From: Escherichia phage vB_Eco_D226
Length of the DNA: 40,050 bases
Direction: 5' to 3' (one strand)
Sequence record: MN080711.1
A program made the translations under genes and the position numbers. The notes beneath the pieces were generated by a model that saw only the letters and a list, made by a program, of their open reading frames with translations, had not been told where the DNA came from and searched no databases. The stretch's first letter is position 1, and each line of letters begins with the position of its first letter. This document shows positions 1,015 through 33,060 of the stretch, piece after piece.

Positions 1015-2775
1015 TTACCACTCAATGAAGCAGCTAGAGTCTCCATCGTCCTCATAGTAGATGTCCACGCCACCAACATCGTAGCTATGGATAGCATCGC
1101 CACCAATGGTCTGTTTCTCCATGTGATGTTCAAGGAACTCAAGAGTCATCTCTTCCTCACCGATACGACTGTCTACAAGCATCCCCTCGCGTAGCCATTC
1201 GATACCCAATGCGATAGCATCAAGTCGGTCATCGTGTGCCACAGCGCCTCGCTCACGAGTCATACGGGTCATCTGATAGAACGCACTGTAGCGAACATCA
1301 TGTTTCCCATCAAGGTCACGAGCAGTCTGGTAGTCCTCACGGATAACCTCATCACGAATGACCAGCTTGTGCGCACCCATCAACGGTTCGATAGTATCGC
1401 AGATTCGCATCTCCTTCATGCCTTTAGCACGGATTTCCTCTAAGGCACACTTGTGGTGCTTCAGGAGAATCGGAGAGAAAATCTTACCGAACATACCATC
1501 ACCGAAGTTGGACTCGTGGACGACTGTCTGTACCTTCCACTGCTTGGCCTTCTTAGCGAGCTTCTCTAGGGTAGCATCATCGTAACCACCACGGAACCCA
1601 CCGACTTCCATCAAGTAGATATAACCGTTAAGTGAGTAGAGGACTGCATACCCGGTCTCATCCTTACCACGACCACTTGGGTCAATGACCAGAATCTTAG
1701 ACTGATACTCAGCGGTACGAGAAGAGCACGTATGGAACGCATGGATGTCATCACCCTTCAGACCAACGTTAGGGAGTTCCTCATTGCGGTTCTGACGGTT
1801 CGGCAACCACTGGTAAGACAATGGGGCACGTTCGGGGTCCACAGCGCACACGATAGCATCACGGAGTCGTAGCGGGTACTTCTCGGCATCACTAAGGTTC
1901 GGGTTAAGCATGAACTGAAGCGTGTAGCCAGCTTTACCATATTCGAGTTCACGCTCACGGAGGTCATCCATGTCGAATCGAATAGGGTCAGTAGGTTGTC
2001 CACGAAGAATCTCGTAGCCTTCATCATATTCAGCCTTAAGCATCGGAGCCAAGCGGTCCCCATAGTAGAGAGCCTCAGCGTCATTACGTGGATACTGTGC
2101 AGGCCAGATTACAGTGCTGTACCCTTTGTTATCCTCAAGTTCCTTGTAGAGCGTCATCTCGGTTTGAGGTGTGCCAAGGTAGATAACACGAGAGGTAGGC
2201 AGTGGCTTAAGTAATGCAGCAAACTCAGTTACCAACGTCCAGAGCTTCTCACGGGCAGAACTCGTAGAGCTATTACCGGGAACCTCAACGTCATCTGCGA
2301 TGATGATGTCAGCACGGCTACCAGTTAACTGACCAGTGATACCCACAGACTTCACAGAGGGTGAGTGGTCAGGTTTAGCTAATCCAACGTCGAAGCTAAT
2401 CACGGAGTCACGCTGTCCCGGTCGAGGTTTCAACTCAGCGAGGAATGGCAGCAGGTCAATGATGTTCTTGATGAAGATGGAGTTAGCATCCGCACGTTCC
2501 TTAGAGGCAGACACTATGAGCACCTTAAGTTGAGGGTCACGCCATAAGACCCACACGACGAACGCACAGGTGATAAAGGACTTGCCGATACCACGGAACG
2601 CCTGAAGGATAAACTTCTTGTGGTCGCCGTTAGCGAGTGTACGTGCCATATCAATCTGACACTTGGTTGGTTTAGGTAAGTTCAGAGCCTTCCATAAGAC
2701 GAACAGGAAGGCCACGAAGTCACCCTTAAGTTGCGCAATGATTAATGCGTTCTTAGCTCCTTGGGATTGTGACAT
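1015..2775 (-). CDS. 19: Terminase large subunit (gp19)
   Basis: 586 aa, same length and strong similarity to T7 gp19 as recalled; last structural gene in T7 order. Confidence 0.97.
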
Positions 2776-3221
2776 TACTTAGCCTCCTTCTTAGTTTGCA
2801 TTTCTTTGATTGTACCTTGGAGCGCACGAATCCACGCATCCCCTCTTTGAGTTACTCCGATAAGACGCTTACTAAACTCTTCGTCAAGTTCGGCTCGACC
2901 ATCAACGAGGCATCCACCGTTATCTTGGAGTTCTCGTGAGGTGGCTGATAGTTTGACGCGCAAGCGCTTACCATCGTTACGCAAATCATTAATGACCCTA
3001 TCAGTGCTGCCTTCCAGCGCCGCAAGGTCTTCTTGGTATTGCTGTGAGATTTCGTTGATAGCAGCCTGTTTATCCGCAGTCGCCTCAACCTTCTTAACGT
3101 ACTCATTGTGCACCTCCTGTTCCCATTTAGTGTTAGCTTTGTCATAGCCGTGGTTATACGCAAGGGTAATTCCCAAGGCAAACGCAGCGATTATGGCGTA
3201 GCTCTTTAAATTCTTGAGCAT
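2775..3221 (-). CDS. 18.5: i-spanin (gp18.5, Rz-like)
   Basis: 148 aa, N-terminal TM segment followed by charged coiled coil; position between genes 18 and 19. Confidence 0.9.
2852..3106 (-). CDS. 18.7: o-spanin lipoprotein (gp18.7, Rz1-like) embedded in gene 18.5
   Basis: Alternate frame inside 18.5; [10 protein letters not shown]... with lipobox-like MVSAC and C-terminal SLMVEPNLT matching T7 gp18.7; start trimmed from the ORF track. Confidence 0.8.
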   Translation of the reverse strand: MSTLRRLRRLRINRLLSTKSHSNTKKTLRRWKAALIGSLMICVTMVSACASNYQPPHENSKITVDASLMVEPNLTKSLVSVLSE

Positions 3222-29859: not shown

Positions 29860-29905
29860 AATGATTCTCCTTTAGTTTCTGAAAGTTAAAGTGGGAAACG
29901 CTGTG

Positions 29906-29928
29906 TCTCCCATTAGTGAGTCCTATTA
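29906..29928 (-). promoter_or_regulatory. Phage RNAP promoter phi2.5
   Basis: Reverse strand TAATAGGACTCACTAATGGGAGA. Confidence 0.75.
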
Positions 29929-30117: not shown

Positions 30118-30292
30118 TGTCCTCTCTCCTTCCAGTGATTATATAATTCAAGGTAGTCGGTGTTGCCTGTCTTTTCAAACATACGCTCACACCATTCGCT
30201 AGGCTTTTCCATATTCCACCTCTATAGCCCAAAACATGAGGAACAGGCAAGCACCCATTCCAACACAAATTAGCAGGAAATATAAGATGTCA

Positions 30293-30604
30293 TTAAGCAT
30301 AGCACTTACCTTTATGTTTCTCATACAGTTCACCATAGAACCCAGCTTTCGCCATGTCCTTCTCTAAGAATGCCAGTTCAGATTTCTTACCAGCACGTAG
30401 GCGATACTTAAGGATGTTCCCTAAGCAGTACCCCTTGAACTGTTCACGGGTCATCGACCGGGCAATCACTTCGATAGCCTCAATGTCGTCAAACAACATA
30501 TAGTGGCTCGGAGTCCGAACACCCTCTATATCTTGTGGTTTAGCTACAGGTTCACAGGTATGTGGGTAGCGGTCATCATTCTCTAAACATGCCATGCAGA
30601 CCAT
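30293..30604 (-). CDS. 1.7: gp1.7-like protein (nucleotide kinase homologue, shortened)
   Basis: 103 aa; N-terminus ACLENDDRYPHTC and C-terminus PSHYMLFDDIEAIEVIARSMT.EQFKGYC.GNILKYRLRAGKKSELA.LEKD.AKA.FY.EL.EKHK.KCYA match T7 gp1.7 (196 aa) with the central region absent. Confidence 0.85.
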   Translation of the reverse strand: MVCMACLENDDRYPHTCEPVAKPQDIEGVRTPSHYMLFDDIEAIEVIARSMTREQFKGYCLGNILKYRLRAGKKSELAFLEKDMAKAGFYGELYEKHKGKCYA

Positions 30605-30867
30605 TAGAACACCTCCTTGATACGCGCAATGACCAGACGGACTTTAGGGAAACGGGTGACGAGAACCGGAATGAAAGGCCGGGAGCCAGTGGTCGCTTCT
30701 TTGTATAAGCCAGTGGTGATTACAGCGTGAACACGAGGTGCTAACTCAATGGTCGAGCCAAGCACTTTAGGAATGACTGCATGTTTCTCGGAGGCCAGCA
30801 CCGTAGAACGGTCAGAGCCACGAGCCGAGAAGATACCGTTAGATTTGTTGAAGTGAAGTCGTAACAT
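30604..30867 (-). CDS. Hypothetical protein at the gene 1.6 position
   Basis: 87 aa from MLRLHFNKSNG; the transcript from the adjacent promoter begins GGAGGACACAACU-AUG, so the SD sits at the 5' end; the first Met of the ORF track lies inside the promoter and was rejected. Confidence 0.65.
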   Translation of the reverse strand: MLRLHFNKSNGIFSARGSDRSTVLASEKHAVIPKVLGSTIELAPRVHAVITTGLYKEATTGSRPFIPVLVTRFPKVRLVIARIKEVF

Positions 30868-30874
30868 AGTTGTG

Positions 30875-30897
30875 TCCTCCATAGGTGAGTCGTATTA
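30875..30897 (-). promoter_or_regulatory. Phage RNAP promoter (phi1.6 position)
   Basis: Reverse strand TAATACGACTCACCTATGGAGGA. Confidence 0.6.
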
Positions 30898-30982
30898 GCA
30901 ATCAGGCCAGCAGTTGTCGTCAATGATAACGAAGGCAAACGTGGCAAAGATAGCAGCAGCAATTAGAAATAGCATGAGGTTG

Positions 30983-31005
30983 TTCCTCCATAGTGAGTCT
31001 AATAG
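30983..31005 (-). promoter_or_regulatory. Phage promoter-like element (phi1.5 position), divergent
   Basis: Reverse strand CTATTAGACTCACTATGGAGGAA; mismatches at -17, -16, -13, -12. Confidence 0.4.
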
Positions 31006-31466
31006 ATGTGATTTCGAACATCCACTGCTTCCTCAAGTGTCCCGTATGTTCCATGAGACTTACCATTGATTCTCACAATAAAGTGTCCAGTTCTTTTGCA
31101 GGTGTGGATGTGGCGCGTTCCAGATTTGGACTGCTTTGGTACATTTCTGTTATACCCATTCTGGCTACGAGTTACCAACCGAAGATTCTCTATCCTATTA
31201 TTGGAAGGGTTTCTATCTATATGGTCTATCTCAAGCCCATCAGGTATTGCTCCAAAGTTTAGAATCCACACCAGCCTGTGTACCTGTATGTTCTTCTTCT
31301 CATGTTGCGTAGACCAGTACCCATCTTTTCTTAGAGTACCGCAGGGCTTTCCAGAACGCGAAAAGACCAACCCCGAAGGGCTGGCCTGATTGTATTTATA
31401 TTTTCTCGCATGGATTGCTTTCTGTTCCACGGAACATTTCGAAGGAAGGGTGACGCAACGAGCCAT
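30999..31466 (-). CDS. HNH homing endonuclease (HNH_3-type with C-terminal AP2-like DNA-binding region), 155 aa
   Basis: Motif EIDHIDRNPSNNRIENLRLVTRSQN; GGAGG 6 nt upstream of ATG; the 5' end overlaps the last ~70 nt of the ligase gene. Confidence 0.85.
   Translation of the reverse strand: MARCVTLPSKCSVEQKAIHARKYKYNQASPSGLVFSRSGKPCGTLRKDGYWSTQHEKKNIQVHRLVWILNFGAIPDGLEIDHIDRNPSNNRIENLRLVTRSQNGYNRNVPKQSKSGTRHIHTCKRTGHFIVRINGKSHGTYGTLEEAVDVRNHIY
31357..31384 (-). terminator. Intrinsic terminator-like hairpin just after the ligase stop (TE position), inside the HNH coding sequence
   Basis: Transcript CCAGCCC-UUCG-GGGUUGG followed by UCUUUUCG; T7 carries the early host-RNAP terminator TE immediately after gene 1.3. 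Confidence 0.45.
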
Positions 31467-32421
31467 CTTTTGTTTCCTCCATGTAGTTTACTTGGCACTG
31501 CCAGCCTGTGTAGAAGTCATCACCATGTTCTTTAACATTGGCAGTGAACTCATCCATCAACGCTTGGCTGATATTGTTAGCGGAGACTACGCGACCGGAC
31601 TCAAGGAGAACCTCAAAGCCAATCACTTTACCTTCGTTAGCCAGACCCGGAGTACCCCAATTGACAGACTGAATCACGCCGTCAGCTTCACACTCAGGTT
31701 TGAGTTTCCACCAGCCAGACTTCTTCCCACGCTTGTAGACTTCCAGCGGGTCTTTGACGACCAGACCTTCATGACCATCGGCACGGGCTTTCTCGTAGAG
31801 TTCCTGAAGTTCTACCATGTCGTAGACTTCCTTGGCTTCAGAGAGTTCCCAAGTGATTTCCGGGAAGTGTTCACTAAGAACCGGAATGAGGGAACGCACA
31901 TGCTCTTGCATCAGGAGGGACATAACGCCGTACTCTTTGCCTTCTACCATATCGTGATACGGCATAGCGGCATACAGGACAACCTTGAGTCGTTGAGGGT
32001 CTAACTCAAACGGCTGTTTGTTCTTCTTCCATTCATCATGCCAATACTCACTGGTAGAGTGCACGAAGTTTGTAGCCTTGAGCCACTTGGTTCTCAGTAG
32101 GCCAGACCCTGTGTTGAAGTCTACGCCTTTTACCATCAGTTCACCATCCAGCATGAAGCCATCAGGGAAAATCCAGCGGTCATCTTTGAGAACATTAGCC
32201 CAGCGTTGGTCGAACCCATTAAGGTGCTCAAGCGCGGGGATGGTCTTGGAGACACGGGATAGCCACAGGCAGTCAGCCGTATTGTCAACCACGATGTTAC
32301 CACGTACACCATCATGCTTAGTGTCAGCAATCAGGTAGCCAGCTTTGTCGAGTGCTTTCTTAATGGCAGACTCAACGTAGGATACTGCTTTGAACGGCGA
32401 AGTCTTAAATGTGATTTCCAT
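31396..32421 (-). CDS. 1.3: ATP-dependent DNA ligase (gp1.3)
   Basis: 341 aa; KTSPFKAVS.VESAIKKALD.AGYLIA..K.DGVRGNI and GHEGLVVKDP...YKRGKKSGWWK.KPE.EADG match T7 ligase, including the adenylation Lys in K.DGVRG. Confidence 0.97.
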   Translation of the reverse strand: MEITFKTSPFKAVSYVESAIKKALDKAGYLIADTKHDGVRGNIVVDNTADCLWLSRVSKTIPALEHLNGFDQRWANVLKDDRWIFPDGFMLDGELMVKGVDFNTGSGLLRTKWLKATNFVHSTSEYWHDEWKKNKQPFELDPQRLKVVLYAAMPYHDMVEGKEYGVMSLLMQEHVRSLIPVLSEHFPEITWELSEAKEVYDMVELQELYEKARADGHEGLVVKDPLEVYKRGKKSGWWKLKPECEADGVIQSVNWGTPGLANEGKVIGFEVLLESGRVVSANNISQALMDEFTANVKEHGDDFYTGWQCQVNYMEETKDGSLRHPSFEMFRGTESNPCEKI

Positions 32422-32506: not shown

Positions 32507-32529
32507 TTTCGCAATAGTGAGTCGTATTA
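32507..32529 (-). promoter_or_regulatory. Phage RNAP promoter phi1.3
   Basis: Reverse strand TAATACGACTCACTATTGCGAAA. Confidence 0.75.
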
Positions 32530-33037: not shown

Positions 33038-33060
33038 TTTCCCATTAGTGAGTCGTATTG
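33038..33060 (-). promoter_or_regulatory. Phage RNAP promoter phi1.1B
   Basis: Reverse strand CAATACGACTCACTAATGGGAAA. Confidence 0.75.

Follow-up and report, generated by a model that had tools for sequence, protein, structure and literature searches.

A probable HNH homing endonuclease gene of the gene 1.45 family overlapping the ligase gene, a TE-type hairpin and promoter phi1.5 in Escherichia phage vB_Eco_D226

The window analysed here, a stretch of 40,050 nucleotides from Escherichia phage vB_Eco_D226 (MN080711.1), a Berlinvirus-like member of the T7 group, probably contains, between the early terminator TE and the phage promoter phi1.5 (Table 1), a member of the gene 1.45 family of free-standing HNH homing endonuclease genes, for which TE-gated expression and homing are proposed. 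Public annotation has included this gene family, at this site and overlapping TE and phi1.5, since the genome of Yersinia phage phiYeO3-12. The D226 gene is an ordinary, catalogued type of selfish nuclease, and its sole notable trait is the tight borrowing of its neighbours' signals. Full-text searches found no literature specific to gene 1.45, and no cleavage, homing or expression data for any homologue were found among the accessible papers; prior knowledge thus rests on GenBank annotation.

Table 1. Features around the HNH gene of vB_Eco_D226, with positions in the window
Feature	Position	Strand	Basis
Phage-RNAP promoter phi1.3, TAATACGACTCACTATTGCGAAA	32507..32529	minus	Consensus match; same position as annotated phi1.3 of Kvp1 and BA14
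ATP-dependent DNA ligase (T7 gene 1.3 homologue), 341 aa	31396..32421	minus	ORF list, Pfam; ligase in all related records
Divergent, conversion-like tract (ligase 3' third)	31396..31720	minus	Identity to HNH-free Berlinviruses
GGAGG Shine-Dalgarno, 9 nt 5' of HNH ATG, within ligase codons M-E-E	31476..31480	minus	Sequence
Putative homing endonuclease ORF, HNH (HNH_3 / I-HmuI-like) plus AP2-like	30999..31466	minus	155 aa, ATG start
Out-of-frame ligase/HNH overlap, 71 nt, encoding HNH residues 1-24	31396..31466	minus	ORF coordinates
TE-type hairpin (10-bp stem, UUCG loop) plus UUUU, within HNH codons 27-36 (Q27 to S36)	31361..31387	minus	Fold, TE homology, covariation
Segment of 348 bp (116 codons, HNH residues ~38-153), absent from HNH-free Berlinviruses BP12A and BA14	31007..31354	minus	Sequence comparison
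Phage promoter phi1.5, CTATTAGACTCACTATGGAGGAA	30983..31005	minus	Identical to annotated BA14 phi1.5 23-mer
Gene 1.5, 26 codons, MLFLIAAAIFATFAFVIIDDNCWPDC	30895..30975	minus	Translation; homologous to gene 1.5 of Kvp1, BA14 and 285P
Phage promoter phi1.6, TAATACGACTCACCTATGGAGGA	30875..30897	minus	Identical to annotated BA14 phi1.6
Gene 1.6 (BC10 family), 87 aa from second ATG	30604..30867	minus	Pfam BC10 E=4e-19; 264 nt as in Kvp1 and BA14

The ORF is intact, and its product, which contains EIDHIDRNPSNNRIENLRLVTRSQN, matches Pfam HNH_3 (PF13392; E=1.7e-21, 76 bits, cut-off 24.8) and the PHROG_99 family 'HNH endonuclease' (E=5e-42). Residues D81, H82, N90, N94, N103 and N106 of the HNH catalytic and metal-binding motif (beta-beta-alpha-Me) are invariant in an alignment of 31 homologues, and profile comparison aligns them with VVDHKDGN...NLRWVT...N of I-HmuI. 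The AF2 model (pLDDT 88.5) has I-HmuI 1U3E as its best Foldseek match (probability 1.00, E=1e-4, rmsd 3.2 Å, 91 columns, 35% identity), and the HNH profile matches the same structure with E=2e-13. Hence the HNH fold expected of the ORF, which the preliminary description named as an HNH homing endonuclease, is borne out. Judged by its sequence and model, the product is an HNH endonuclease with an I-HmuI-type nuclease core and a predicted nuclease activity. The C-terminal elements of the model (strands 120-122, 129-133 and 136-141, helix 144-154) form a three-stranded sheet plus helix resembling AP2/ERF; the family profile matches the AP2/ERF chains 7WQ5 (5.8e-10), 7ET4 and 1GCC, and PF00847 is precomputed on many homologues. 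Pfam AP2 gives no match at E<=0.01 with the single sequence alone. The C-terminus is thus assigned as an AP2-like domain with predicted DNA-binding function. A pseudogene reading is rejected on account of the intact catalytic residues and low dN/dS, and plus-strand antisense ORFs at 30993-31389 are set aside, as they lie opposite a well-supported gene.

Alignment with HNH-free relatives defines the insertion boundaries, which were set from the junction strings of BP12A and BA14. The junction reads TTTTCGCGTT/TCTATTAGACTCAC in BP12A and TTTTCGCGTT/CTGGAAAG...AATCACA/TCTATTAGACTCAC in D226, the extra 348 bp lying between TE and phi1.5 and having no start or stop codon of their own. The preliminary description had a mobile gene invading the junction of ligase and gene 1.6. 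The mobile invader agrees with the patchy presence of the gene and with the 348-bp insertion, whereas the junction has to be redrawn as that of TE with phi1.5 and gene 1.5, the latter being the next gene downstream. The promoter-like element that it placed over the 3' end of the ORF is identical to BA14 phi1.5 and contains the HNH stop codon TAG (31001..30999). In every carrier with the TE-phi1.5 layout the ORF likewise ends inside the phage-specific promoter, whether of T7, T3, K11 or Berlin type. Phage promoters of D226 were found by match to the consensus TAATACGACTCACTATTGGGAGA.

At its other end the gene begins in the ligase gene (DNA_ligase_A_M E=2.5e-25, DNA_ligase_C E=1e-36), where the strong GGAGG ribosome-binding site and the start about 70 nt inside the ligase gene, both described before, are found again, the exact overlap being 71 nt. 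The GGAGG is also present in HNH-free relatives, within the ligase motif YMEET.DGSLRHP. The HNH ATG is made by the ligase codons GAT-GGn (D-G of DGSLRHP), and its frame runs across the last 24 ligase codons; as it then continues through the TE hairpin, the start codon lies 5' of TE. The aspartate codon is GAT, which gives the ATG, in every carrier examined, while the HNH-free loci have 28 GAT and 36 GAC (i.e., the ATG occurs in 44% of non-carriers). The frame from the ATG is open in every carrier and stops after 24 codons in most non-carriers. Carriers have in common the overlap of 71 nt, the hairpin inside the ORF and the run-in of the ORF to the promoter; the layout is therefore a constant feature of the element family, not specific to D226.

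A shorter protein, translated from a start past the ligase gene so that the overlap with ligase and hairpin would be a mere open upstream extension, is improbable. Residues 1-11 are predicted to be disordered (residues 12-40 are modelled confidently by AF2), residues 1-39 have no significant similarity to the N-termini of distant family members (profile score about 0 bits, as high in 21 of 500 shuffles), the annotated starts differ in NC-A, CQ615 and KP32, and D226 has a GTG at codon 13. However, no in-frame ATG follows codon 1, and no other in-frame start conserved among carriers was found: GTG13 is GAG in L1, phiYeO3-12 and CQ615, and the next in-frame start, GTG66, would cost the conserved beta-sheet and H63. 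The presence of the ATG and of an open frame in all carriers, as opposed to the 44% and the early closure in non-carriers, also argues for the long form. In view of the shuffle test on residues 1-39, the part encoded by the overlap is only possibly a working part of the enzyme, and a resemblance of Y25 and PSG to distant homologues in the 31-sequence alignment is not claimed as homology.

The stem-loop AGGCCAGCCC-UUCG-GGGUUGGUCU occupies 31387..31364 (HNH codons 27-35) and is followed by UUU CGCGUU; a 66-nt segment containing it has an MFE of -21.4 kcal/mol. It is homologous in position and sequence to the annotated TE of T7, T3, BA14 and Kvp1, and TE is also annotated in phiYeO3-12. Its place at the T7 TE position and inside the HNH frame is as first described, and so is the UUCG hairpin past the ligase stop; the distance of 12 nt given for it is not reproduced, since the stem starts 8-11 nt past the stop, depending on the pairs counted (8-13 nt across carriers and non-carriers). 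The U-run described after it is present and has only four U; a generic terminator scan with a threshold of 5 T in 8 did not flag the hairpin. As that scan missed it, the TE assignment is based on the homologous TE elements annotated elsewhere and on base-pair covariation, with 95.8% of cells paired, five of eight pairs changed on both sides, and the observed value reached in 0 of 500 shuffles. This covariation indicates that selection acts on the structure of the hairpin, both in carriers and in non-carriers. That it no longer terminates in carriers and is kept for another role, e.g., as a 3'-end or stability element of the ligase mRNA or as a brake on HNH translation, is unlikely. Such a change would fit the four U past the stem, the GUUUCC or GUUUCA of clade-B carriers, and the loci L019 and L102 of two other lineages, in which the HNH gene lies 5' of a separate, better TE and the internal hairpin has no U-run; from the latter, the terminator role of the internal hairpin may vary. 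Against it, the D226 stem and tail TTTTCGCGTT are exactly the annotated TE tail of HNH-free BP12A, the functional TE of T7 has a similarly broken U-run (UUUCUGCGUUU), and D226 contains no second hairpin between the HNH gene and phi1.5.

In T7, early transcripts of the host RNA polymerase end at TE. By the order of the elements, a full-length HNH mRNA must begin 5' of the hairpin and run through it. Transcripts of the host enzyme that end at TE could not encode the endonuclease, and its mRNA would consist of TE-passing transcripts, made chiefly by the phage RNA polymerase from phi1.3, the closest phage promoter on the 5' side from which ligase and HNH can be transcribed, and from promoters further upstream. 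The need to pass TE would delay and limit expression. Expression solely from phage-RNAP readthrough, inferred in the preliminary description, may apply, as phage promoters lie upstream, and readthrough of TE by the host RNAP is possible.

T7, T3, Kvp1, BA14 and BP12A are without the gene, and of 68 IMG/VR ligase loci only four carry it, 64 being HNH-free; these counts come from a ligase-based search, used because a search of IMG/VR by HNH protein returned mostly unrelated contexts. The possibility that the ORF is a core gene, raised earlier as an argument against mobility, is thereby ruled out, most relatives being without it. The same gene occurs sporadically at the same site in at least five Studiervirinae genera (Berlinvirus, Teetrevirus, Teseptimavirus, Elunavirus, and Przondovirus). 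According to pairwise identity matrices the HNH and ligase trees are incongruent: D226 and pEp11 share 88% identity in HNH and 60% in ligase, whereas the respective values are 66% and 82% for NC-A and CQ615, and 56% and 80% for pEp11 and phiYeO3-12.

The neighbouring ligase sequence also deviates. Identity of D226 to HNH-free Berlinviruses is 92-100% at 31701-32000. Between about position 31700 (31550 in the comparison with BP12A and 285P) and the ligase stop it is about 55-80%, and at phi1.5 (31005) it is back to 88-100%, mostly 94-100%. The sole close database match of the divergent tract is vB_SEqdws-315, followed by PP74 (81.6%). Such a one-sided tract, covering the 3' 150-350 nt of the ligase gene, is found in two independent carrier/non-carrier pairs (D226 vs Berlinviruses and phiYeO3-12 vs T3). 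By their sequence these tracts fit co-conversion, and ordinary mosaic recombination could produce them too. The same ligase gene has an unrelated divergent patch at 32001-32100. Decayed alleles are known as well: L109 and L113 have an internal deletion that leaves ~38 codons at the start and ~22 at the end of the gene, and the PP74-like L101 lost the gene by deletion between GGCTGGC repeats. Within clades the dN of the gene is 0.13-0.22, and dN/dS is 0.06-0.20 where computable; as dS is saturated in most pairs, these ratios are available as bounds only. They are far below 1, which indicates that the gene is functionally maintained.

Free-standing endonucleases cut away from their own gene and co-convert flanks (PMC2988022). 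By analogy with those of T4, the D226 enzyme would act on HNH-free relatives during mixed infection, cutting them at the insertion site or upstream of it, probably in the 3' end of the ligase gene or close by, and repair would copy into the recipient the HNH gene along with TE and the adjoining ligase 3' end. Retention for the benefit of the phage, and not (only) for homing, appears rather doubtful: the enzyme might cut co-infecting competitors (interference competition), or its DNA binding might blunt a host defence. Strong purifying selection with saturated synonymous divergence implies long functional maintenance, and a 2025 preprint reports for HNH homing endonucleases, T7 gp3.8 among others, a weakening of the GAPS4 defence that does not depend on catalysis, and a gain in the competitive fitness of the phage (10.1101/2025.09.07.674715). 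But the gene is missing from 64 of the 68 ligase loci and deletion remnants occur, and this rarity together with the remnants fits a cycle of gain, decay and loss better than a generally useful gene. A benefit to the phage is compatible with homing. Still less probable is an element that is now immobile, having entered a Studiervirinae ancestor once and become patchy by vertical descent, repeated loss and ordinary recombination, with the ORF as a passenger. The deletion alleles show that loss happens, and T7-like genomes are generally mosaic, the patch at 32001-32100 included; yet the phylogenies of HNH and ligase are incongruent across genera, the conversion-like tract adjoins the gene in two independent pairs, the catalytic residues are intact, and dN/dS is far below 1.

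The mobile unit is possibly a coding-incomplete cassette, i.e., 348 bp without start or stop that make a gene only at this site, with ~40 N-terminal residues overprinted on the ligase C-terminus and TE and a stop codon supplied by the downstream promoter. Helix 12-22 and the first beta-hairpin of the protein would then be overprinted on the ligase C-terminus and the TE hairpin. TE would do double duty by encoding a structured part of the nuclease and gating its expression to the phage-polymerase phase, and the ligase 3' end and TE would move with the element as coding sequence.

Among comparable systems, I-HmuI (1U3E), an HNH nicking endonuclease of Bacillus phage SPO1, shares the HNH core and the preceding beta-sheet with the D226 protein; it is encoded within an intron, and its C-terminal DNA-binding region is of another kind, whereas the D226 gene is free-standing with an AP2-like C-terminus. 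The small HNH genes scattered in T7-like genomes (gp3.8, gp5.3, and gp7.7 types) occupy loci other than that of D226, and T7 gp3.8 is not known to have the N-terminal sheet. The 397-bp HNH insert of Hafnia phage Ca, at a different locus, is likewise polymorphic, and it overlaps both neighbouring ORFs (PMC8861465). The T4 genes mobE and segF, intergenic free-standing endonuclease genes with a terminator in the 5' coding region, resemble the D226 layout, but belong to another phage family and have another DNA-binding domain. For mobE, located between nrdA and nrdB, the intrinsic terminator lies in the 5' end of the coding region, expression relies on promoters of the upstream gene, flanks are co-converted, and a further promoter, located after mobE and before the next gene, restores expression of the latter (PMC2988022); it is a studied precedent for a terminator within the 5' end of a homing endonuclease gene. 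In D226, by comparison, the terminator is the pre-existing early terminator of the phage, and start and stop are borrowed from resident sequence as well. The finding has little import for biology at large, and its practical value is modest: the ligase-TE-phi1.5 gap, which naturally tolerates insertions, offers a site for the engineering of T7-like phages, and the intact, deleted and empty alleles across genera form a natural series on the life cycle of a homing endonuclease gene in T7-like phages, which may also serve for target finding.

The closest described layout is gene 1.45 of phiYeO3-12 (NC_001271, HNH endonuclease), which has the same site after gene 1.3, the same 71-nt ligase overlap, TE annotated inside the ORF, phi1.5 over the 3' end with the stop in the promoter, and the same HNH plus AP2-like architecture. 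Its protein is only 55% identical to that of D226 (clade B vs clade A), its hairpin has another stem (GGCUCC/GGAGUC) with a weaker U-run, and the promoter is of T3 type. The D226 clade (72-100% protein identity) comprises the HNH proteins of Erwinia phage vB_EamP-L1, Escherichia phage NC-A, pEp_SNUABM_11 and vB_SEqdws-315, which share the junction, the GGCCAG(Y)CC-UUCG hairpin type and the ORF running into phi1.5; they come from different genera and have different ligase backbones (47-63% ligase identity). In vB_SEqdws-315 a promoter variant without the TAG extends the ORF to 167 aa. The ORF is unannotated in this phage and in pEp_SNUABM_11 and mis-started elsewhere, so these annotations can be corrected.

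The window phage belongs to the T7 group and is Berlinvirus-like, with genes on the minus strand throughout and Enterobacter phage vB_SEqdws-315 as the closest record (95% nucleotide identity across the region). As the preliminary description held, the HNH ORF opens at a GGAGG inside the ligase gene (the T7 gene 1.3 homologue), the two reading frames overlapping by 71 nt, and its product is an HNH nuclease: it matches Pfam HNH_3 (E=1.7e-21, 76 bits, cut-off 24.8) and PHROG_99 'HNH endonuclease' (5e-42). A search of 5.8 billion proteins returned 164 homologues, mostly of 150-170 aa; in many of them Pfam AP2 occurs alongside HNH_3, and the C-terminal third of the family profile matches plant AP2/ERF domains. 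Asp81, His82, Ile83, Asn90, Asn94, Leu95, Asn103, and Asn106 are invariant in a 31-sequence alignment. The confident AlphaFold model (pLDDT 88.5) has a single significant neighbour in the PDB, the HNH homing endonuclease I-HmuI (1U3E, probability 1.00), which the family profile also matches (E=2e-13). Residues 1-11 are predicted to be disordered; order begins with helix 12-22, and residues 12-40 are modelled as ordered.

Features at the ligase junction of the window
Feature	Coordinates	Strand	Remarks
phi1.3	32529..32507	-	promoter-consensus copy upstream of ligase
ATP-dependent DNA ligase ORF	31396..32421	-	upstream of HNH ORF; family matches
GGAGG	31480..31476	-	9-nt spacer to HNH ATG (31466)
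HNH ORF	30999..31466	-	155 aa; includes EIDHIDRNPSNNRIENLRLVTRSQN
TE-type hairpin	31387..31364	-	10-bp stem, UUCG loop, then UUUU; HNH codons 27-35
phi1.5	31005..30983	-	23-mer identical to annotated BA14 phi1.5
gene 1.5	30975..30895	-	26 codons
phi1.6	30897..30875	-	after gene 1.5
gene 1.6	30604..30867	-	after phi1.6

In Berlinviruses that lack the gene, the ligase stop is followed by the TE hairpin (the early terminator for host RNA polymerase), TTTTCG(C/T)GTT, and TCTATTAGACTCACTATGG (phi1.5). The same junction in the window reads TTTTCGCGTT / CTGGAAAG ... AATCACA / TCTATTAGACTCACTATGG, a clean difference of 348 bp (116 codons, 31354..31007). An invasion had been proposed for the ligase-to-gene 1.6 junction; the insertion is borne out, but the invaded junction is that between TE and phi1.5, since phi1.5, gene 1.5, phi1.6, and gene 1.6 come next. 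The promoter-like element noted over the 3' end of the ORF is phi1.5 itself; the phage promoter consensus of the window is TAATACGACTCACTATTGGGAGA, with further copies upstream of the ligase near 33060 and 33685. The mechanical ORF of gene 1.6 begins at an ATG within phi1.6 (extension 30868..30882, 92 aa), while the Kvp1 and BA14 homologues indicate the second ATG (30867, 87 aa).

Scanned in the HNH frame, the 348-bp segment contains neither an in-frame ATG nor a stop codon. The start is supplied by the ligase codons GAT-GGn and the Shine-Dalgarno sequence by ATG-GAG-GAA, both of the conserved motif YMEET.DGSLRHP, and the stop (TAG, 31001..30999) lies within phi1.5. The element's least usual trait is that its unique DNA, lacking both a start and a stop, makes up a gene solely in this setting, in a frame that overprints the end of the ligase and the terminator. 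All carriers have the ATG at the ligase Asp codon, which in HNH-free loci is GAT in 28 and GAC in 36 (counts that are not phylogenetically independent); that frame is closed after 24 codons in most of the loci without the gene. GTG13, compared among carriers as an alternative start, is not conserved. Conservation of the C-terminal FRGTE.NP.EK[IVM]* of the ligase does not depend on the presence of the HNH gene; of the two frames in the overlap, that of the ligase is therefore the ancestral one, on which HNH residues 1-24 must be overprinted. TE-homologous DNA encodes residues 25-40. Scored with a profile built from the N-termini of its distant homologues, the N-terminal part of the window protein does not reach significance; it could be either a replacement of an ancestral N-terminus or a diverged form of one.

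The hairpin is the counterpart of the annotated TE in T7, T3, BA14, Kvp1, and phiYeO3-12. It lies within the HNH frame, as first described, though it begins 8 nt past the ligase stop and not 12 (8-13 nt in carriers and non-carriers alike); the 66-nt segment around it folds with a minimum free energy of -21.4 kcal/mol. A generic terminator scan did not flag it because only four U follow the stem. Among nine distinct sequences, pairing is kept in 95.8% of the stem cells, and five of eight pairs show changes on both sides; this covariation was matched by 0 of 500 shuffles, and a one-column shift of the partner halves the pairing. Both the stems (GGCCAGCCC/GGGUUGGUC versus GGCUCC/GGAGUC) and the encoded residues (QASPSGLV versus REAPSGVV) differ between the HNH clades, so the structure itself is selected and is not a by-product of protein conservation. 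In two other lineages, L019 (~1500..2060) and L102 (~2330..2860), the HNH gene follows the ligase stop and precedes a separate, well-formed TE, and the internal hairpin is kept without a U-run. A simple scan also flagged two terminator-like minus-strand hairpins at 29892..29912 and 30240..30261, the former beginning in the transcribed part of a promoter (~29925-29903).

As the start codon is upstream of TE and no promoter separates TE from the main part of the HNH gene, every full-length HNH mRNA must pass the hairpin. By analogy with T7, transcripts of the host RNA polymerase would largely stop at TE and not encode the nuclease, whereas those of the phage polymerase from phi1.3 and the promoters upstream would ignore TE and could encode it; phi1.5 would then restore transcription of the downstream genes. 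TE-terminated transcripts would, as a side consequence, contain the 5' part of the ORF without a stop codon. Readthrough of TE by the host polymerase might also yield HNH mRNA. The arrangement would be that reported for T4 mobE, which has a terminator in its 5' coding region, depends on upstream promoters, and is followed by a promoter (PMC2988022). The gene might in addition benefit the phage, compatibly with homing, either by interference competition or by weakening break-sensing defences, the latter having been reported for T7 gp3.8 (10.1101/2025.09.07.674715).

The family is already annotated at exactly this site, with exactly this layout. In phiYeO3-12, gene 1.45 ('HNH endonuclease') likewise overlaps gene 1.3 by 71 nt, contains an annotated 'putative early transcriptional terminator TE', and has phi1.5 over its last codons. 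Erwinia phages L1 and pEp_SNUABM_11, coliphages NC-A and CQ615, and Klebsiella phage KP32 have the same layout, and in each of them the ORF ends inside the phage's own type of promoter (T7-type TAATACGACTCACTAA, T3-type ATTAACCCTCACTAA, K11-type ATTAGGACCCACTATAG, or Berlin-type). By tblastn, the match overlaps an annotated ligase in 38 of the best 40 phage records. The gene is absent from T7 (where gene 1.4 fills the gap), T3, Kvp1, BA14, and BP12A and from 64 of the 68 IMG/VR loci retrieved by ligase, and is therefore not a core gene. Neither of the two refuting conditions named at the outset, lack of an HNH fold and core-gene status, holds; the initial interpretation is right in its essentials, and the finding is real.

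Annotation of the ORF varies. It is unannotated in pEp_SNUABM_11 (MT822287, ~1480..1956) and in vB_SEqdws-315 (OK663600, 2479..2982), where the protein is 100% identical and the ORF extends to 167 aa because the promoter, with TACG for TTAG, lacks the TAG. Only a 90-aa HNH fragment is annotated in CQ615, and the annotated starts lie 29 codons further upstream in KP32 and 12 codons further downstream in NC-A. The gap between ligase and phi1.5 is an insertion hotspot offering two slots: some Berlinviruses, such as S523 (1133..1315) and 285P (~1344..1530), carry a different 60-aa ORF with no assigned function between the ligase stop and TE, and T7 gene 1.4 sits after TE. In most Klebsiella-type relatives (the Przondovirus-like locus L104 and ~40 other IMG/VR loci), the ligase stop directly abuts a phi1.5-type promoter (TAA TTAGGACCCACTATAGG), and the TE hairpin is missing altogether; KP32-type carriers have a different ligase 3' end and the hairpin.

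The HNH clades cut across ligase relationships. Clade A comprises the window, pEp_SNUABM_11, L1, and NC-A, and clade B comprises CQ615, KP32, and phiYeO3-12, with L019 and L102 apart. The window and pEp_SNUABM_11 share 88% identity in HNH and 60% in ligase; for NC-A and CQ615 the values are 66% and 82%, and for pEp_SNUABM_11 and phiYeO3-12, 56% and 80%. Compared with HNH-free Berlinviruses, the window ligase is 92-100% identical at 31701-32000 and ~55-80% from ~31700/31550 to the stop; identity is back to 88-100% (mostly 94-100%) at phi1.5 (31005). Among 50,697 phage records, the only close match to the 3' third of the ligase is vB_SEqdws-315, followed by PP74 (81.6%). The independent pair phiYeO3-12 and T3 has the same one-sided gradient, identity falling from 0.9-1.0 to 0.64-0.86 in the last ~350 nt of the ligase and standing at 0.96-1.0 directly after the HNH gene. 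Decayed alleles also occur: in the IMG/VR loci L109 and L113 (~2330..2440), with the ligase end and hairpin of the KP32 type, an internal deletion has left ~38 HNH codons at the start and ~22 at the end, and in the PP74-like locus L101 (~2330..2450), compared with L102, the gene has been deleted between two copies of GGCTGGC, of which one lies among the N-terminal HNH codons and the other in the 3' arm of the TE downstream. Purifying selection acts on the protein (dN 0.13-0.22 within clades with dS saturated; dN/dS 0.06-0.20 for computable pairs only). Taken together, clades, tracts, decay, and selection appear to match the behaviour of the free-standing homing endonuclease genes of T-even phages, which cleave at a distance and co-convert flanks (PMC2988022).

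Elsewhere in the ligase gene, a 100-nt stretch (32001..32100, minus strand) is 50-82% (mostly 62-72%) identical to vB_SEqdws-315 and most Berlinviruses and matches S523 at 86-96%, which suggests a small patch of separate recombination within the gene.
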